Of a DNA stretch of 64,000 nucleotides, positions 5,092 to 56,050 are shown one piece after another. Numbering within the stretch: the first letter of the stretch is position 1; each line of letters opens with the position of its first letter. The stretch comes from an uncultured Flavobacteriales bacterium (GTDB lineage Bacteria > Bacteroidota > Bacteroidia > Flavobacteriales > UBA1820), in NCBI GenBank assembly GCA_902478645.1, contig CABSLV010000005.1, positions 20,892 to 84,891 of the forward strand, given 5' to 3'. A program made the translations under genes and the position numbers. The notes beneath the pieces are model-generated. The model had not been told where the DNA came from, searched no databases, and worked only from the letters and a program-made list of their open reading frames with translations.

Positions 5092-6438
5092 TCAGTTGAA
5101 CAGGACCATGGCAGGGAAGAGATATTCCTGATACTCCAAACGCGATTTCTCAGCGCCGGTCTTTCCGTCGAATACCACCAGTCTGTTCTGGTTGTCTCCC
5201 CAGCTAACACCCACGAAAGTGGCTACCAAGTCGCCGCTCACGGGATCTACCCGGAAACCACCGCCGTAGAGGTAATCGTTCGCACCCCCCGCGGCAAACG
5301 GCTGGGCGAGCGACGAAGCGTCGCCGATCTGATAACGGTAGATATTCTGTACGGCATAGTTGTCCCCTGCACTGGCAAAGTACAAGACATTTTCCGTGGC
5401 GGAAGCATCGAACATGGCCGGCTTCCACGCCCACTGGTCGGTATAGACTTCAAGACCTTCGGGAAGGTCGGTCTTGGTTACGGCCAGGGTCTTGGGATTG
5501 ATGCAGTAGAGCGAAGGGCCGTCCGAAGCCCAGATGTTGCCGTCCTTGGACTGTACGAAACCGATGTGCGCCGGGCAGAGCACCTCGCTGCGGACCAGCG
5601 AACGATCGGCTTTGGAGTACACGTATACGCCGTCCTTGACATTGATGACAAAGATGTAGTCACCCGCCGTGATCGCACCGCCGCACTGGGCCGACATGCC
5701 GGTAGAGCCTACGCCCCGCGAGCCTTCCAGGTAAGATACCGACTTGAACGTGTTGAGATCGACCACGTAAGCCCCGTTGGAGGTCGTGTACACCCCGTAG
5801 TTTTCGTCGATACCGGCAAAGGAACGTCCATCGGCATCCGAACCGGCTACTGCAGCGGAATACTCACCGCCATCGACAAAATCGGTGGCCGAGGCCTTGA
5901 CCAGAGTGCGGCCCTGCTTGGAGACGAAGTAATAGTTTCCGTTCCATTTCGTACCGAATTCGGTCGTATTGCCCAGTTCTTTTCCCGGGTTGGCCGTCTG
6001 ATACACGTGCGGAGTACGGGTGGATGCGTCGGCAAAATAATCGACCGAACCCATCGTCCGACCGAACGAGCCTTCGTTGATGACGAAAAATCCGCCCTTG
6101 TACAGCACTACACTTACGGTAAATTCACGCGAATCGGTACCGGAAACATTCGTGGCGGTAAATTTCAGGATGTACTCCCCGGTCTGCTTGGGAGCAAAGG
6201 TGTACGCCAACTCGGTGGATACTTCCTCCCCGTCGAGCGTCCACTGGTATTCGGTCTGCTCGGTAGGGGTTACCGATGCGGTGAAGGTGATGCTTTCCCC
6301 GACAGCCATCGAAAGGTTGTCTTCGGCATTTTCGATTCCGGCAATAGCCGGAACATCCGGATCGTCCTCCTTCGAGCAGGACGTAAATCCTACTGCCAGG
6401 GCGGCAGCAAGGATCATGGTGTAAAAAAATCTTTTCAT
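5092..6438 (-). CDS. Surface lipoprotein with PKD/Ig-like domain plus DUF5074/YncE-like beta-propeller
   Basis: MKRFFYTMILAAALAVGFTSC lipobox. Ig-like segment (ITFTASV...YQWTLDGEEV...KFTATN), then GGFFVINEGSFG typical of DUF5074-type propellers. Confidence 0.72.
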   Translation of the reverse strand: MKRFFYTMILAAALAVGFTSCSKEDDPDVPAIAGIENAEDNLSMAVGESITFTASVTPTEQTEYQWTLDGEEVSTELAYTFAPKQTGEYILKFTATNVSGTDSREFTVSVVLYKGGFFVINEGSFGRTMGSVDYFADASTRTPHVYQTANPGKELGNTTEFGTKWNGNYYFVSKQGRTLVKASATDFVDGGEYSAAVAGSDADGRSFAGIDENYGVYTTSNGAYVVDLNTFKSVSYLEGSRGVGSTGMSAQCGGAITAGDYIFVINVKDGVYVYSKADRSLVRSEVLCPAHIGFVQSKDGNIWASDGPSLYCINPKTLAVTKTDLPEGLEVYTDQWAWKPAMFDASATENVLYFASAGDNYAVQNIYRYQIGDASSLAQPFAAGGANDYLYGGGFRVDPVSGDLVATFVGVSWGDNQNRLVVFDGKTGAEKSRLEYQEYLFPAMVLFN

Positions 6439-6538
6439 TCGTTTGTAGATTTTACTATGGATTTTGAGATGCCGCAAATTTACTCATTTTTTGACTTCCT
6501 CCCAGCCGACAAGCCAAGAATAAACGAGACTCCAGCCA

Positions 6539-6801
6539 TCTTTTCATAAGACAGGATGCGCTCCGGCAAAACCATCGGGGAAAAACCTCACCCTCTCCCT
6601 CGCCTTTGCACTCGGCTTTCACTGTCTTTTCATAAGACAGGATGCGCCTCGGCAAAACCATCGGGGAAAAACCTCTCTCTCTCCCTCGCCTTTGCACTCG
6701 GCTTTCACTATCTTTTCATAAGACAGGATGCGCCTCGGCAATCCCTTAAGGAAAAACTTCATTTTCCCCCGAGGCTTTGCACTCAGCATTCGCTATCTTT
6801 G
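6539..6801 (+). repeat. Tandem array of an 86-bp unit (3 copies starting at 6539, 6625 and 6711; third copy diverged)
   Basis: Unit: tcttttcataagacaggatgcgcctcggcaaaaccatcggggaaaaacctc..ctccctcgcctttgcactcggctttcacta. The period of 86 was derived from ORF-track codon positions. Confidence 0.9.
6794..6801 (+). promoter_or_regulatory. Bacteroidota -7 promoter box TATCTTTG upstream of rnpA
   Basis: Perfect TAnnTTTG 24 nt upstream of the ATG at 6825. It forms the end of the repeat array. Confidence 0.6.
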
Positions 6802-6824
6802 CCCTAACAAAAAACACTGACCCG

Positions 6825-7211
6825 ATGCGCGCCACTTTGGGCAAAAACCAACGGCTGAAAAGTTCCAAACAGATCCGCGAAATCTTCTCCAGACGAAAGA
6901 GCGTGGCCGCGCCACCACTGCGCATTCTCTGGAACGAGATACCGGGCGAAGGGAATCCCTTAGCCGCTTTTTTCGTACCCAAGAAATACTACCGGCACGC
7001 GGTAGAGCGCAACCGGATCAAACGCCTGATGCGTGAAGTTTACCGCACCACACGCTACCAATACATCGGCGGATACTCCCATCGGTTCGCATTCATCTTT
7101 CTGTGGACCGGGCATGATGTACCCGAACTGACCACCGTAAAAAGCCGGATGGACAAAGCCTTTGCCCGTTGGCGGGAGGAAATAGACCGAAGAAACGAAG
7201 TATGCAAATAG
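6825..7211 (+). CDS. rnpA: Ribonuclease P protein component
   Basis: KNQRLKSSKQIREIFS...HAVERNRIKRLMREVYR signature. Internal Met of ORF 6777-7211. Confidence 0.85.
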   Translation: MRATLGKNQRLKSSKQIREIFSRRKSVAAPPLRILWNEIPGEGNPLAAFFVPKKYYRHAVERNRIKRLMREVYRTTRYQYIGGYSHRFAFIFLWTGHDVPELTTVKSRMDKAFARWREEIDRRNEVCK

Positions 7212-7675
7212 ACATCTACACCGACGGCTCCTCGCGGGGCAACCCCGGTCCCGGCGGCTACGGCATCGTGATGCGGGTGCACGACACGAACTACGAAAAG
7301 TCCTTCCAACAGGGATTCCGCCTGACGACCAACAACCGGATGGAACTCCTGGCGGTGATCGTCGCGCTGGAAAAACTGCAAACCTCCGGTCATCAGGTAC
7401 ACATCTATTCGGACTCCCGCTACGTGGTGGACGCCGTGAGCAAAGGTTGGCTCGACGGGTGGGTCAAAAAAAACTTCGCCGGAAAAAAGAACCCCGACCT
7501 GTGGATGCGTTACCTGCGCGCCGCCCGAGGACAACATATCGTCTTCCATTGGATAAAGGGACACAACGAACACCCGGAAAACGAACGCTGCGACGCCATG
7601 GCCGTCGCAGCCGCCACAGCCGATGCCGCGAAACTGGCCCGCGACACCGTATTTGAAAACGAATACAAGCTATAA
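7202..7675 (+). CDS. rnhA: Ribonuclease HI
   Basis: IYTDGSSRGNPGPGGYG, TNNRMEL, DSRYVV, HWIKGHNEHPENERCD. Overlaps the rnpA stop by 10 nt. Confidence 0.92.
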   Translation: MQIDIYTDGSSRGNPGPGGYGIVMRVHDTNYEKSFQQGFRLTTNNRMELLAVIVALEKLQTSGHQVHIYSDSRYVVDAVSKGWLDGWVKKNFAGKKNPDLWMRYLRAARGQHIVFHWIKGHNEHPENERCDAMAVAAATADAAKLARDTVFENEYKL

Positions 7676-8899: not shown

Positions 8900-9460
8900 C
8901 TACGACATCCCTATCTCGGCAGGCGAGACATACCCGTTGAGCAGCGCATAAAATGTAAGTCCCGATACGGTCTTGATCCCCGTTTTGGCCGAGATGTTTT
9001 TACGATGGGTGAGCACGGTGTTGAAACTGATGGACAACCGCTCGGCAATCTCTTTGTTGATAGCCCCCGAAACGACCAGACGCAAGACCTGTATTTCCCG
9101 GGGTGTAAGATTCTTATTTTCCTCACCCTCTCCTGTGGAATCGTGTCGGCCAAAGAAGCCTTTTATCACCTCGACCATACGGTGCTGATCGGCAGAAGTA
9201 TCGAGCAGGCATTCTCCCTCCTCCCCTTGGCCCGCACCTAAAGACAAGCGGACGAGTTTCCGCGCAACGATGCCCGCAAAGGAACCCATCGCTTCCTCTT
9301 CGACGAAATACATATCGTAGTCCTCGTGCCGCACCCATTCGCCCGAGGTGGCGTACAGGTCGATCTCCATCGGAGGGAAATACGAAACCAACAGGTTTCG
9401 CAATCCCCCGGCCCGCAGCGTGTCGCGGCAACAGATGGCTACCCGACGGATCCTACGCAT
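8900..9460 (-). CDS. LuxR-family HTH transcriptional regulator with degenerate receiver-like N-terminus
   Basis: C-terminal LTPREIQVLRLVVSGAINKEIAERLSISFNTVLTHRKNI. N-terminal VAICCRDTLRAGGL lacks the acidic DD pocket. The start overlaps the upstream stop by 8 nt. Confidence 0.8.
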   Translation of the reverse strand: MRRIRRVAICCRDTLRAGGLRNLLVSYFPPMEIDLYATSGEWVRHEDYDMYFVEEEAMGSFAGIVARKLVRLSLGAGQGEEGECLLDTSADQHRMVEVIKGFFGRHDSTGEGEENKNLTPREIQVLRLVVSGAINKEIAERLSISFNTVLTHRKNISAKTGIKTVSGLTFYALLNGYVSPAEIGMS

Positions 9461-10208
9461 CGTCTCTGCCGGTGTTTTTGCCCCCGCGCTCCATCGCATG
9501 AACCATCGGGATGAGTATCCGGTGGCGGATCCGCTCGTGCAGGCGCATGTCTTTTTCAAAAGCCGAAACGGCAAACAATACGGCGTAACACAGGTTCGGG
9601 TCGTACATCCCCCGCAAATGCCGCACCAATACGCTCTTTATGTCGCGCAACTGCTCCCAGCCGTATTCCTGATCTGCCGCACTCTTTTGCACGGGCGACA
9701 TTGGACGCAAGTCGGCCTGGGGGACGGAACGGCACAGACGGAGCACATAGGGGAAAAACTCGTCCTCATCCCGCTCCATCCGCTCGCAGATACGCGCCTT
9801 TGCCTTGGAAAACGCATCACCCACCAGCGCGAGCGCGGGGTTTTCCCCCCGTCCCGAAGCGACGAAACCCTTCAAATGCCGCTCGATGTTGGGCAACTGA
9901 AACCGGCGGTAATACGCATGGGTCTTGCTCAGGTAATCGACGATCTGTTCGGCGTGAAAAGCGGAGAACTGCTCCTGCGGGAAATACCCTTCGTTGAGAA
10001 AGGTATTGAGCACCATCAGGAAAAAACCGGTGTCGATACCCTGTCGGGCACATACCTGTTCCACGGAACTCTCGCCCAAGCCGAGCGGGATACCGAAACG
10101 ATCGAGTACCGGCATGAGAAAGGGATGGTCTTCGAGTATCCCGGCCAAAGACATATCGCGGTATATCAGCAGCATGTTTTTATGAAATTTATCGTTTACC
10201 CTTACCAT
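9453..10208 (-). CDS. Hemerythrin-like / ScdA(RIC)-like di-iron protein (putative)
   Basis: 252 aa from the internal Met MVRVNDKF. ScdA_N-like PFLMPVLDRFGIPLGLGE..VEQVC, then His/Glu-rich helices (THAYYRR, DEDEFFPYV, MRLHERIRHRILIP). Confidence 0.55.
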   Translation of the reverse strand: MVRVNDKFHKNMLLIYRDMSLAGILEDHPFLMPVLDRFGIPLGLGESSVEQVCARQGIDTGFFLMVLNTFLNEGYFPQEQFSAFHAEQIVDYLSKTHAYYRRFQLPNIERHLKGFVASGRGENPALALVGDAFSKAKARICERMERDEDEFFPYVLRLCRSVPQADLRPMSPVQKSAADQEYGWEQLRDIKSVLVRHLRGMYDPNLCYAVLFAVSAFEKDMRLHERIRHRILIPMVHAMERGGKNTGRDDA

Positions 10209-10261
10209 TCGCTGCTCTGCACAGTATCGTTGGTAGGCTTGCGCCAGAATTTCCCGGCGGA

Positions 10262-10269
10262 CAAAGATA
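10262..10269 (-). promoter_or_regulatory. -7 promoter box TATCTTTG (minus strand) upstream of the hemerythrin-like gene
   Basis: caaagata on +. 54 nt upstream of the ATG at 10208. Terminal part of the repeat. Confidence 0.55.
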
Positions 10270-10400
10270 GTGAAAGCCGAGAGCAAAGCCGCGAGGAGAA
10301 ACGAAGTTTTTCCTCGGAGGATTTGCCGAGGCGCATCCTGTCTTATCCAAAGACAGTAAAAGCCGAAGGAGAGAAAACGTTTTCTCTCTGAGCAAAGGCA
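10262..10400 (-). repeat. Dispersed copy (about 1.5 units) of the 86-bp repeat family, inverted orientation
   Basis: caaagatagtgaaagccgagagcaaag...gccgaggcgcatcctgtcttatccaaagacagtaaaagccgaagg is the reverse complement of the 6539-6801 unit. Confidence 0.85.
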
Positions 10401-10429
10401 ACGGCAACCGACATGTGCTTTACTGCGGG

Positions 10430-44746: not shown

Positions 44747-44786
44747 AACGCTTCCCCTGCAACGAAACAGGGATCCGGCTCAAGTT

Positions 44787-44851
44787 GAGCAGAGCGCAAA
44801 GAAAAACCCCCGGGGGAAAATCCCCCGGGGGTTTTTCTTTGCGCTCTGCTC
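44787..44851. terminator. Bidirectional terminator: perfect 30-bp inverted repeat
   Basis: gagcagagcgcaaagaaaaacccccggggg / aaaat / cccccgggggtttttctttgcgctctgctc, between trxA (+) and nhaA (-). Confidence 0.8.
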
Positions 44852-44860
44852 TCACGCGGA

Positions 44861-46258
44861 TCAGTGCTTGCGCTTGGCCGAGATCGCGTAAAGGAACGTA
44901 TAACCAATGATGGCCGCCAGCACCGAAGCCAACAGGATAGCCAGTTTCGCTTCAGAGGTATAATTCATCGCTATCTCCCGGATGGACAGATCCGTGGTGC
45001 GGAAGGCCAGTTCGGTGATGAACAACGCTACGGTAAAGCCCATACCGGCAATGATGCCCATTCCGAAGATGTGTTTCCACTTCACGCCCTCGGGCAATTT
45101 GCCGATGCCCAGTTTGACAAACAGGAGCGTAAAGAGGAAGATACCGATCGGTTTACCTACCAGCAGACCTATTCCCACACCGAGCGCCACCGGAGTAGCG
45201 ATAGCCTGGGTAAAACTCAAATCGCCGCTCACGTTCACTCCGGCATTGGCCAAAGCGAAGACCGGCATCACCAACAGCGCCACCCAGGGAGCCAGCGTCC
45301 GCTCGACACTTGCCAGCGGGCTTTCCGCATATTTGGTGAGTTGTTTCAGTTCGAAGTACGTATCCGAAGTCTCGGCATCGGGCATCCCCCGGAATATCGT
45401 CTCCGGTCCTTTGTCCTCGAGTTTACCGAGCAGTTTCTTGGCCTTGGCCGCGTAATCCTTGGGCAACATCCCGGCATTGGTCGGGAAAGCAAAGCCCATC
45501 AACACACCGGCAATGGTGGCATGCACTCCGGATTCGAGGATCTGCGTCCACACCACGACAAATCCCACCACGTAGTACAACCAGCGGGTGCGGGCATTGA
45601 CCATGTTGGAAAAGAACAGGAAGGCCACCCCGATCAACGCAATGGCCAGCGCGCCGGTATTGAGATGCTCGGTATAGAAGAAGGCAATCACGGCGATACC
45701 TCCCAGGTCGTCCGCCACGGCCAGGGTCATCAGGAACACTTTCAGGCTCAAAGGCACCCGTTTGGCCAACAGGGAGATCACCGCCAACGAGAAGGCAATG
45801 TCGGTAGCCATCGGGATACCCCAACCTTGCTCGGCGATGTCGGCCGCATTGTGGTTGAACAGATGGTAGATGATGGCCGGAGCCAGCATTCCGCCCAAAG
45901 CGGCGGCAATGGGCAGGATCGCTTTCTTGAACGAGGAGAGTTTTCCGGCGACGAACTCGCCCTTGAGTTCCAATCCTACGCTAAAGAAGAAGATGACCAT
46001 CAGCAGGTCGCTGACAAACAACTGCAGGCTCTTCAAGTGAATCGACATGAAGTAGGATACGTGTTCTACCACCTGCCCGTTTTCCAGTGCTTTCTCCACG
46101 TGTTTGCCCAGGTTGAGGGTCAAAGGCTGGTTCCACACTGCATTGTACGTATCGGGCGAGACGTTCGCCCAGACAAATGCTGCTACCGCAGCGAAAAACA
46201 ACAGCCCGCCGGTAAAGGTCGGTCCGGCGAGAATGCTTCGGAGTTTTTTCAGTTTCAT
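44861..46258 (-). CDS. nhaA: Na+/H+ antiporter NhaA
   Basis: FFFSVGLELKGEF and TLAVADDLGGIAVIAFFY motifs. Confidence 0.92.
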   Translation of the reverse strand: MKLKKLRSILAGPTFTGGLLFFAAVAAFVWANVSPDTYNAVWNQPLTLNLGKHVEKALENGQVVEHVSYFMSIHLKSLQLFVSDLLMVIFFFSVGLELKGEFVAGKLSSFKKAILPIAAALGGMLAPAIIYHLFNHNAADIAEQGWGIPMATDIAFSLAVISLLAKRVPLSLKVFLMTLAVADDLGGIAVIAFFYTEHLNTGALAIALIGVAFLFFSNMVNARTRWLYYVVGFVVVWTQILESGVHATIAGVLMGFAFPTNAGMLPKDYAAKAKKLLGKLEDKGPETIFRGMPDAETSDTYFELKQLTKYAESPLASVERTLAPWVALLVMPVFALANAGVNVSGDLSFTQAIATPVALGVGIGLLVGKPIGIFLFTLLFVKLGIGKLPEGVKWKHIFGMGIIAGMGFTVALFITELAFRTTDLSIREIAMNYTSEAKLAILLASVLAAIIGYTFLYAISAKRKH

Positions 46259-49250: not shown

Positions 49251-50171
49251 TTACATTCCGAAATTGATATAATCCTGCGGATCGACCGATGCGCCGTCGA
49301 TCCACAACTCAAAACGCACCACCGGGTTCGAGGTCGCTCTGGCTCCCAATCCCGTGGTGGCGATCAGTTCCCCCTGGGAAACGCGATCGCCGGGATGCTT
49401 CTGGGTAAGGCCTACGTTCTTATAGACGGTGGACATGTTTCCCGGGTGGCTTATCACGAGTACATTGCCGCTCTCGGGGGTCCAGTCGCGGTAAATGACC
49501 GTTCCGGAGGCAACGGCAAAGATCGGCGTATTGGAGGGCGCCGAAAGATCGATCCAGAGATGATCGGTCGAGGGATCGTACGGCGCAGCCATCACCGCTC
49601 CGCGTACCGGCACGGAGAGTACCTGCATCGAACGGGTAGTTATCGCAGCCTGCAAAGCCTCCATCTGCCGCTGCTCGACCTGACGACGGAATGCCGAATC
49701 CTGTGCCGAGGCCCAGATAAATTGTTGGGCGTTTTTGGAAACCGAATCGACAAAGACCGAATCCTGCATCTTTTCCGGAGCGACATCCCCGGCCAGAATA
49801 TCGCGAAGCACCGCCAGGTAGGCTTCGTTTTGCATCAGGCGTGTTTCCAGCGTATCGACCTGGGAAAGCAGGTGTACCGTTTGGCGGCGCAGGGCCGGGA
49901 TATCGTCGGTGATCACATACGTCTTCAGGCTGGTATAGCGCAACAGCAGGATCGTTCCCCCCACCAGCACGAGGGTAGCCACGGCCAGGAGGATGACGAT
50001 GTTCATCGGGCGAAGGCGCAGGGAAAACACCTCGTGGAACATCGCTTCGTCAAAAACGATGAACTTGAAGTGATTGGTCAGTTTCCGGTGCAGACGACGA
50101 CGGAAACTTTCCTTGGGTTCATTCCCGGGGTGGGATTCCTTTTTCTTGGCAGCCATTTCGTCTATCGGCAT
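49251..50171 (-). CDS. M23/LytM-domain membrane protein, probably catalytically degenerate
   Basis: N-terminal TM and coiled coil. LytM domain with HLWID (HxxxD), but YKNV replaces the usual HxH. Confidence 0.8.
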   Translation of the reverse strand: MPIDEMAAKKKESHPGNEPKESFRRRLHRKLTNHFKFIVFDEAMFHEVFSLRLRPMNIVILLAVATLVLVGGTILLLRYTSLKTYVITDDIPALRRQTVHLLSQVDTLETRLMQNEAYLAVLRDILAGDVAPEKMQDSVFVDSVSKNAQQFIWASAQDSAFRRQVEQRQMEALQAAITTRSMQVLSVPVRGAVMAAPYDPSTDHLWIDLSAPSNTPIFAVASGTVIYRDWTPESGNVLVISHPGNMSTVYKNVGLTQKHPGDRVSQGELIATTGLGARATSNPVVRFELWIDGASVDPQDYINFGM

Positions 50172-50193
50172 GGCATTTTCCGCCTGCCGCGTA

Positions 50194-50201
50194 CAAAGAT
50201 A
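50194..50201 (-). promoter_or_regulatory. -7 promoter box TATCTTTG (minus strand) upstream of the M23 gene
   Basis: caaagata on +. 23 nt upstream of the ATG at 50171. Terminal part of the repeat. Confidence 0.55.
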
Positions 50202-50281
50202 GTGAAAGCCGAGAGCAGAGGCAAACGAAAACGAAGTTTTCACTTTGACCCTGCCGAGACGCATCCTGTCTTATCCAAAGA
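50194..50281 (-). repeat. Third locus of the 86-bp repeat family (one copy, inverted orientation)
   Basis: caaagatagtgaaagccgagagcagaggcaaacg...gccgagacgcatcctgtcttatccaaaga. Confidence 0.85.
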
Positions 50282-50316
50282 TAGATATAAAAATTCTTGG
50301 AATCCTCCCTCAAAAA

Positions 50317-55943: not shown

Positions 55944-56050
55944 TTTGCTTTTTTAGATAAAACTCATCTCGGTTCGGAAGCGTCCCGGAGCGAAAACTGC
56001 ATTTCCATCCTTCCCGTTCTGCCCGTGTTTCACGATTTTGATTCCGGTGG

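Follow-up and report, generated by a model that had tools for sequence, protein, structure and literature searches.

A putative promoter-bearing palindromic repeat upstream of rnpA and at dispersed loci in Bacteroidales genomes

In the stretch of DNA analysed here (64 kb in total, referred to below as the window), the intergenic gap upstream of rnpA is occupied by head-to-tail copies of one sequence, the last of which ends in a promoter-like box facing the gene. An earlier note on this DNA had proposed a promoter-carrying, MITE/REP-like intergenic element with regulatory palindromes at the unit junctions. The locus raises the question of whether these copies are a local peculiarity of one promoter region or members of a dispersed family, and of what the repeated unit may do for the gene that follows it. 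We report a computational analysis of the array, of the related copies in the window and of the same element in other genomes. The reading that we favour, with a probability of roughly 0.65 on sequence grounds, is that of a dispersed, copy-number-variable, MITE-like, non-coding palindromic promoter element that is widespread in Bacteroidales.

The rnpA array and other copies in the window

Tandem Repeats Finder detected a period-86 tandem array at 6538-6741 (2.4 copies, 94% matches, score 373), and a third, more diverged unit was picked up by profile and covariance-model searches. The array consists of three head-to-tail units (86, 86 and 85 bp) that span 6546-6801, with nhmmer E values of 1e-28 to 1e-31 and covariance model scores of 65-75 bits (E ≤ 1e-12). 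Its features are as follows.

6537-6544, plus strand: degenerate -7-like box CATCTTTT at the 5' edge of the array, from the sequence; relatives have CATCCTTT or CATCTTTC there
6546-6630, plus strand: unit 1, with a decayed central hairpin and a 3' box, TGTCTTTT, that is off the promoter consensus (covariance model 65.4 bits, E 1e-12)
6632-6716, plus strand: unit 2, a near copy of unit 1 (Tandem Repeats Finder, 94% match), with a 3' box, TATCTTTT, that lacks the G (covariance model 75.2 bits)
6718-6801, plus strand: unit 3, gene-proximal, of another subtype with a different centre (covariance model 70.8 bits)
6794-6802, plus strand: terminal -7 box TATCTTTGC, which fits TANNTTTGY (consensus from PMC12632263), the presumed working promoter of rnpA
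6825-7211, plus strand: rnpA (RNase P protein), the gene at which the array points (Pfam PF00825, E 2.6e-16; gene call in the related locus L065)

The boxes along the array run from TGTCTTTT through TATCTTTT to TATCTTTGC, with box-to-box spacings of 86, 86 and 85 bp; the last is shorter because unit 3 has a 1-nt deletion. The exact 86-bp period in three copies that had been claimed earlier thus applies to units 1 and 2 but not to the last unit. The terminal TATCTTTG lies at 6794-6801, in front of the rnpA ATG at 6825 as had been described, with 23 nt between them. The inverted repeats at the junctions were also found as reported: a perfect CTGTCTT-TTCAT-AAGACAG occupies 6622-6640, and CTATCTT-TTCAT-AAGACAG, at 6708-6726, contains a single mismatch. 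Successive units follow each other head to tail, 1 nt apart and without the unique spacers of a CRISPR array, and the element is non-coding, since 86 is not a multiple of 3 and indels vary the unit length between 66 and 87 nt; on both points we agree with the earlier note. An RNase H gene follows rnpA, its start overlapping the rnpA end (6825-7675 for the pair). The rpmH gene does not precede rnpA in this lineage, and in a distant relative (L084) the called rnpA product starts with an rpmH-like sequence.

The repeat is real and not an assembly artefact, since three independent short contigs from other samples (L066, L067 and L068) contain units 2-3 with the rnpA flank and end inside the array, and eight relatives were assembled straight through rnpA arrays of 1-4 units. 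The exact copy number of the array is uncertain, the assembly being built from short reads. The contig ends of L066, L067 and L068 inside the array indicate that such arrays break short-read assemblies. Shuffled windows gave 0 matches to either of two element probes of 20-23 nt.

The full units of the whole window are the three at rnpA and two solitary ones (E 1e-12 to 1e-32 with profile and covariance model), and the same searches found no further units above noise in the 64 kb. The two solitary copies and their surroundings are listed below.

10262-10346, minus strand: solitary full unit, with terminal box TATCTTTGT at 10261-10269 (covariance model 81.4 bits)
10348-10401, minus strand: truncated older unit, right arm only, with box TGTCTTTG (covariance model 10.8 bits)
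9453-10208, minus strand: gene for a conserved 251-aa protein downstream of the 10262-10346 unit, RIC/YtfE-like in some source annotations (104 homologues)
50194-50274, minus strand: solitary full unit, with a -33 TTTG at 20-nt spacing and terminal box TATCTTTGT at 50193-50201 (covariance model 88.2 bits)
50276-50283, minus strand: intact TATCTTTG box just 5' of the 50194-50274 unit, preceded by non-element sequence (from the sequence)
49251-50171, minus strand: M23 peptidase gene downstream of the 50194-50274 unit (Pfam PF01551, E 1.2e-19)

Both genes start on the strand of their unit, 53 nt past the 10262-10346 unit and 22 nt past the 50194-50274 unit, which bears out the earlier statement that the element recurs at two other loci with its box towards the next gene. 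The RIC-like protein had no Pfam match. The window is from an organism close to UBA1820 (L018), as its nearly identical M23 peptidase locus shows; UBA1820 has two units there against one in the window, and the box at 50276-50283 is likely the original resident promoter.

Three other sequences of the window were recorded. The truncated older unit is interrupted at 10369-10388 by a 20-bp perfect palindrome, GAGAGAAAACGTTTTCTCTC; the close relatives L092-L094 have it too, L095/L096 have it with one change, and none of the other fetched loci contains it. A perfect palindrome of ~65 nt, GAGCAGAGCGCAAAGAAAAACCCCCGGGGGAAAATCCCCCGGGGGTTTTTCTTTGCGCTCTGCTC, at 44782-44871, directly follows a thioredoxin-like gene, with a gene on the opposite strand beyond it, and is probably a bidirectional terminator; it matches the element model weakly (17.8 bits, E 0.16) because it is a hairpin. 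At 55957-56041 (plus strand), between two minus-strand genes, lies a degenerate sequence that resembles the unit weakly (nhmmer E 0.012; covariance model 11.6 bits, E 4.7). It is oriented away from all gene starts and is perhaps a decayed relic, perhaps a chance match.

Distribution and structure of the unit

An exact-pattern scan with ATAAGACAGGATGCGNNNCGGCA, limited to one genome per species, returned 64 stretches. Sixty-two of these, from about 40 genomes, were the same element and the other two were chance matches in non-Bacteroidota. The hosts include the isolates Parabacteroides sp. 52, Mediterranea massiliensis, Caecibacteroides pullorum and Prevotella sp. HCN-7019, and MAGs labelled Barnesiella, Muribaculaceae, Rikenellaceae/Tidjanibacter/Alistipes, Paludibacteraceae, Dysgonomonadaceae, Proteiniphilum, Bacteroides, UBA1820 and Candidatus Merdimorpha; many hosts are MAGs, and some of these taxonomic assignments may be wrong. 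A profile search of the 62 loci and the window gave 139 units in 79 arrays of 1-4 units (38 singles, 26 doubles, 12 triples and 3 quadruples). About one further array was found per 31 kb beyond the copy that recruited each locus, and the window has five units at three loci in 64 kb, a density that on extrapolation suggests in the order of a hundred arrays per host genome.

The element was matched once among 2.9 million viral contigs, by two weak metagenomic fragments among phage records and not at all among the plasmids searched, and a phage or plasmid vehicle was rejected on these counts. With Rfam, only tRNA-Gln was found in the whole window at gathering thresholds, and the best match of a permissive search of 6400-6900 scored 16 bits, well below its gathering score of 34. 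No paper was found with the exact sequence string, a literature search on MITE, REP and palindromic repeats in Bacteroides/Bacteroidales retrieved no named family, and a general MITE census (PMC11602168) does not describe the element; large MITE censuses may contain it unnamed.

The structure of the unit was derived from an alignment of 122 distinct units of 66-87 bp. Terminal inverted repeats of 7 nt, AAGAYAG ... CTRTCTT, are paired in 87% of cells. The 5' arm reads ATAAGACAGGATGCG-N1N2-TCGGCA and the 3' arm TGCnCTC-N2'N1'-CTTTCAC-TATCTTTG, and the core between them varies in sequence and length yet is self-complementary. At least three core classes exist, among them ..GAAAAC-nnn-GTTTTC.. in units of 81-87 nt, ..TCAAGCAAGCTTGA.. 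in units of 72-76 nt, and shorter ones.

Folded as a whole-unit hairpin, the 122 units have 82.8% of cells paired against 71.1% in shuffles, and the covariation score is 0.238 against 0.085, a value reached by none of 500 shuffles. Double changes occur in 22 of the 27 hairpin pairs, and slid controls, with the partner moved by 1-3 columns, lower the pairing to 36-54%. Mutual information singles out N1/N1' (G-C 55, C-G 19, T-A 10), N2/N2' (C-G 54, T-A 26) and the helix from GCA/TGC; the inner helix of 3 bp is 96% paired, with 48 and 31 double changes. Units of different families can match fully save for compensatory changes, as in L029 and L061, which differ only at N1N2, at N2'N1' and at one other base. 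Where the arms of neighbours differ, N1N2 agrees with the 3' arm of its own unit in 25 cases and with that of the preceding unit in 4, so the stretch from ATAAG to TTTG is a coherent module.

By the same count a junction hairpin was rejected as the covarying structure, and the junction palindrome, which had been put forward as a separate site for a regulator or nucleoid protein, is simply the place where the right terminal repeat of a unit meets the left one of its neighbour; the arms that covary are those of one unit (25 against 4), and its two ends form the base of the whole-unit hairpin. The likeness of TTATCCAAA at some junctions to a DnaA box was likewise dismissed: the junction dinucleotide varies and the rnpA array is without it.

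A host global regulator or nucleoid protein that binds the arms or the CTRTCTT-N5-AAGAYAG junction, and thereby co-regulates housekeeping promoters, is an unlikely explanation. In its favour, the arm positions GATGC and CTTTCA are unpaired and more than 90% conserved across families, which suggests sequence-specific recognition beyond the needs of pairing. The core, however, is constrained in pairing and not in sequence, which recognition of double-stranded DNA does not explain; the gene-proximal promoter has only half of the junction palindrome; and sites come and go between close relatives at housekeeping genes. In the reading that we favour, conserved unpaired arm bases together with a core conserved in structure only suggest an enzyme that would recognise folded DNA.

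Folding of single sequences is weak evidence for the hairpin. As DNA, unit 1 of the window (z -0.84) and unit 2 (z +0.8) fold no better than shuffles, and unit 3 and the two solitary copies have z scores of -1.7 to -2.7 in sense and down to -4.5 in antisense. The antisense strand is the more stable as RNA in 84 of 92 units, largely through one C.A/G.U position that is fixed by the promoter TA and enriched by the search pattern. In well-aligned helices, wobble pairs number 32 against 46 A.C pairs, a balanced count, and we infer from the few wobble pairs on either strand that folding at the DNA level fits somewhat better than a classical structured RNA. In L039 (7264-7304) the first 20 nt of a unit are tandemly duplicated, GGATAAGACAGGATGCGGCAGGATAAGACAGGATGCGGCTCGG, which points to slippage at the 5' end of the element or to an insertion aborted there.

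Promoter boxes, downstream genes and turnover

Orientation was assessed by asking for a same-strand ORF of at least 90 aa that starts within 300 nt downstream, with additional Pfam checks. The orientation bias, which the earlier note had made a test of its proposal, is extreme: 75 of 79 arrays face such a start, typically at a distance of 10-80 nt, and the other four either run into a locus end or have another element or array next downstream. Confident Pfam matches from the N-terminus were obtained for 18 of 20 sampled downstream ORFs and cover differing functions, including RnpA, M23 peptidase, FolP, RecQ, ABC-F, IleS, TyrS, MnmG, HflX, Der, FabG, Ffh, sulfatase and transporters; one of the two ORFs without a match has 104 homologues. 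The 75 downstream proteins fall into 62 clusters, and a regulon was rejected, the downstream genes being functionally unrelated by Pfam and by clustering.

The Bacteroidota -7 consensus is TANNTTTGY (PMC12632263), and it is present at all three loci of the window. Across the family the gene-proximal box matches TAnnTTTG in 83 of 87 arrays (95%), against 21 of 67 internal boxes (31%). A pyrimidine follows the terminal box in 77 of 84 cases, and only 6 of 65 internal boxes have the G and then Y. This pattern of conservation shows purifying selection on the gene-proximal box only: one good promoter is kept, next to the gene, and the rnpA array of the window is a clear example. It is the strongest indirect evidence on the role of the terminal unit, which is probably the working promoter of the downstream gene, as judged by the consensus and by these signatures of selection, and box-to-ATG distances of typically 10-80 nt are compatible with short leaders. 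The degenerate boxes at the junctions look like decayed or disabled promoters rather than weak ones. Upstream of the box, a TTTG with an 18-22 nt spacer (peak at 19-20) was found in 32 of 80 terminal and 21 of 45 internal units, about 40% overall, and other subtypes have TTTG at 14 nt; the 50.2-kb copy of the window has the -33 TTTG and unit 3 at rnpA does not.

A structured leader RNA acting in cis, of riboswitch or attenuator type or as a stabilising hairpin at the 5' end, and made from the box that precedes the unit, would place the conserved 5' end of the unit approximately where a transcript from the preceding box begins, and its hairpin would be backed by the covariation. We hold it to be about as unlikely as the binding platform: the downstream genes share no function, the units occur in tandem with cores of unrelated sequence classes, the internal boxes are mostly defective and many arrays are without an intact upstream box, wobble pairs are rare with no preference for the sense strand, and there is no Rfam match. 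Small RNA genes, in which each unit would be a promoter with a short hairpin RNA, are very improbable. They would agree with the promoter-like box before each unit and with the resemblance of some cores to terminators of the A-tract/hairpin/T-tract type, but the terminator is inconsistent, with T-tracts consumed within the stem, most internal boxes are defective, and the units are placed strictly in sense directly before protein genes.

Two further arrangements were observed. In L049 (5385-5549) and L055 (1102-1266), two partial or full units lie back to back in opposite orientation around a common central hairpin and face rpoN one way and an Xaa-Pro aminopeptidase-like gene the other, which looks like a bidirectional promoter built from the element. 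In L062 (436-597), from a Prevotella MAG, a two-unit array lies 29 nt upstream of a cas9-like gene of about 1400 aa.

Turnover was followed at rnpA in relatives with 88-95% identical RnpA and the same flanks on both sides, and the unit number proved variable, in answer to the copy-number check proposed earlier. The array has two units in L069 and L070, four units of three subtypes in L071, one unit and a decayed one in L072, L073, L075 and L076, and two units with a decayed one in L074. L074 and L072 differ by a single unit with identical arm sequences at its two boundaries, which is the outcome that unequal recombination would give. A clade that keeps the gene order at 62% RnpA identity has no detectable unit before rnpA; the empty site reads ...TGCCTATCTTTG, 27 nt, ATG, a plain TAnnTTTG promoter. 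At the RIC-like locus, the 10262-10346 unit is kept in relatives of 98% identity; at 61-64% identity, clades that share the neighbouring genes show only a terminator plus a plain TACCTTTG or TATCTTTG promoter, with no unit. Such presence and absence could reflect loss rather than gain.

Thirty units have their nearest relative at an unlinked locus of the same genome, before an unrelated gene and mostly at 93-97% identity, and unit 3 of the window is most similar, at 88% identity, to a unit that a related genome has at a different locus (L051). These similarities show spread of the element between loci, by transposition or by gene conversion. The 5' edges of arrays are of two kinds. In 13 cases, including 50276-50283, the array is preceded by non-element sequence with an intact TAnnTTTG box, likely the original promoter; in 22 cases, including 10348-10401, the edge is a truncated older unit with a degenerate box. 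No target-site duplication beyond the shared box was found, the flanking dinucleotide matching at ~5 of 20 solitary copies, as by chance.

An explanation restricted to the rnpA promoter region, as a local minisatellite or an artefact of assembly, is hardly credible: the 94% identity of units 1 and 2 and the three short contigs that break within the array would suit it, but further copies lie elsewhere in the window and across about 40 genomes, several independent assemblies traverse arrays, and unit 3 is closest to a unit at a different locus.

Proposed mechanism and relation to known elements

The dispersed promoter element that we favour may be pictured as follows. Transcription of the downstream gene would start from a promoter in the gene-proximal unit, and boxes that end up within an array would decay. 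New copies would appear at a resident promoter, at its -7 box or immediately behind it; as the element brings its own box, such an insertion would replace the promoter and not destroy it. Entry at a resident -7 box would explain the fixed orientation, the retained upstream box, the head-to-tail arrays and the harmlessness of the insertion. Arrays would change in length by unequal recombination between units, and the whole-unit hairpin would probably be recognised by the propagation machinery as folded single-stranded or cruciform DNA. The fuller proposal, that of an order-wide mobile hairpin family which homes to resident -7 boxes, is spread by an enzyme that recognises folded DNA (HUH-type or recombinase-like) and, at the density observed, serves as promoter for a few percent of host genes, is tentative and on balance doubtful.

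The element is small, non-coding, multi-copy and dispersed, with terminal inverted repeats and with presence or absence at orthologous sites, all of which are characteristics of MITEs; the target-site duplication of MITEs is missing. The proposal of a promoter-carrying, MITE/REP-like intergenic element stands as to the dispersal, the lack of coding potential and the box aimed at the next gene, but not as to REP features. In the window and the 8-kb loci we saw no insertion sequence that shares the ends of the element and might be its parent, and no transposase or recombinase was linked to the element. A selfish MITE would not usually have near-identical arms across an order, and these could instead indicate a host function.

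If the gene-proximal units are promoters, a selfish-looking repeat would drive a noticeable share of the housekeeping genes of gut Bacteroidales, with about one array per 20-30 kb and with rnpA, ffh, der, hflX, mnmG, xerD, tRNA synthetases, rpoN and even cas9 among the genes concerned, and strain differences in copy number or unit type would be a source of variation in expression. The element could spread cheaply, since insertion at a promoter would leave a promoter intact. A compact, portable promoter cassette would have practical value for Bacteroidales engineering; annotation and assembly are affected as well, in that contigs break in the arrays. The conserved arms hint at a recognition machinery that may be worth finding.

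Several known systems share parts of this architecture. The attC sites (tens to about 140 bp) have conserved inverted core sites at their ends and a variable self-complementary centre, and are recognised as folded DNA; they are found beside gene cassettes and depend on an integron integrase and an attI site. The present units share the conserved inverted ends, the variable self-complementary centre and the variable length but, unlike attC sites, abut without cassettes at ordinary promoters. The IS200/IS605 elements insert strand- and orientation-specifically beside a short target, without duplication, and have folded hairpins rather than long terminal repeats. By analogy, an element whose own end can recreate the target would explain head-to-tail arrays. 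In contrast to IS200/IS605, no Y1/HUH transposase is linked here, a single hairpin covers the whole element in place of two subterminal ones, and internal junctions are often without the presumed TTTG target. The REP/BIME and ERIC sequences of Proteobacteria are high-copy extragenic imperfect palindromes conserved more in structure than in sequence, as is the element described here. REPs measure 20-40 bp, bear a GTAG or CGTC tag, are located mainly 3' of genes and are not known to carry promoters, whereas the present units are of 66-87 bp, have no GTAG/CGTC tag and lie 5' of genes.

The Correia elements of Neisseria (CREE/NEMIS) are small, non-coding, multi-copy intergenic sequences with fold-back terminal inverted repeats, outward promoters and strain-variable presence. 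Their terminal repeats, of about 26 bp, come with a TA duplication; the elements are found in both orientations, 3' of genes as well, and are not known to form head-to-tail arrays. Our element is likewise a multi-copy intergenic fold-back element of variable presence, with a predicted promoter for the neighbouring gene. It is unrelated to them in sequence and differs in its 7-nt terminal repeats and covarying arms, in the lack of a duplication beyond the box, in a nearly invariable sense orientation directly 5' of a gene and in the formation of arrays.

BrickBuilt of Porphyromonas gingivalis is an intergenic MITE/minisatellite of spacer-free tandem repeats with small inverted-repeat ends and promoter elements; it has a 23-nt repeat within leader and tail subunits, occurs in 19 copies in one species and shows bidirectional promoter activity at 49-591 nt from genes (PMC4596501). 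The two have in common that they are intergenic Bacteroidales repeats, tandem without spacers, with inverted-repeat ends and promoter elements. Here, unlike in BrickBuilt, the repeated unit is a whole palindrome of 66-87 nt, the promoter would be one-way, the start codon is typically 10-80 nt away, and the element spans many families of the order. We place it among the promoter-bearing palindromic intergenic repeats, where it most resembles the Correia elements and BrickBuilt in function and is distinguished by its strict promoter coupling, its arrays and its spread across an order.
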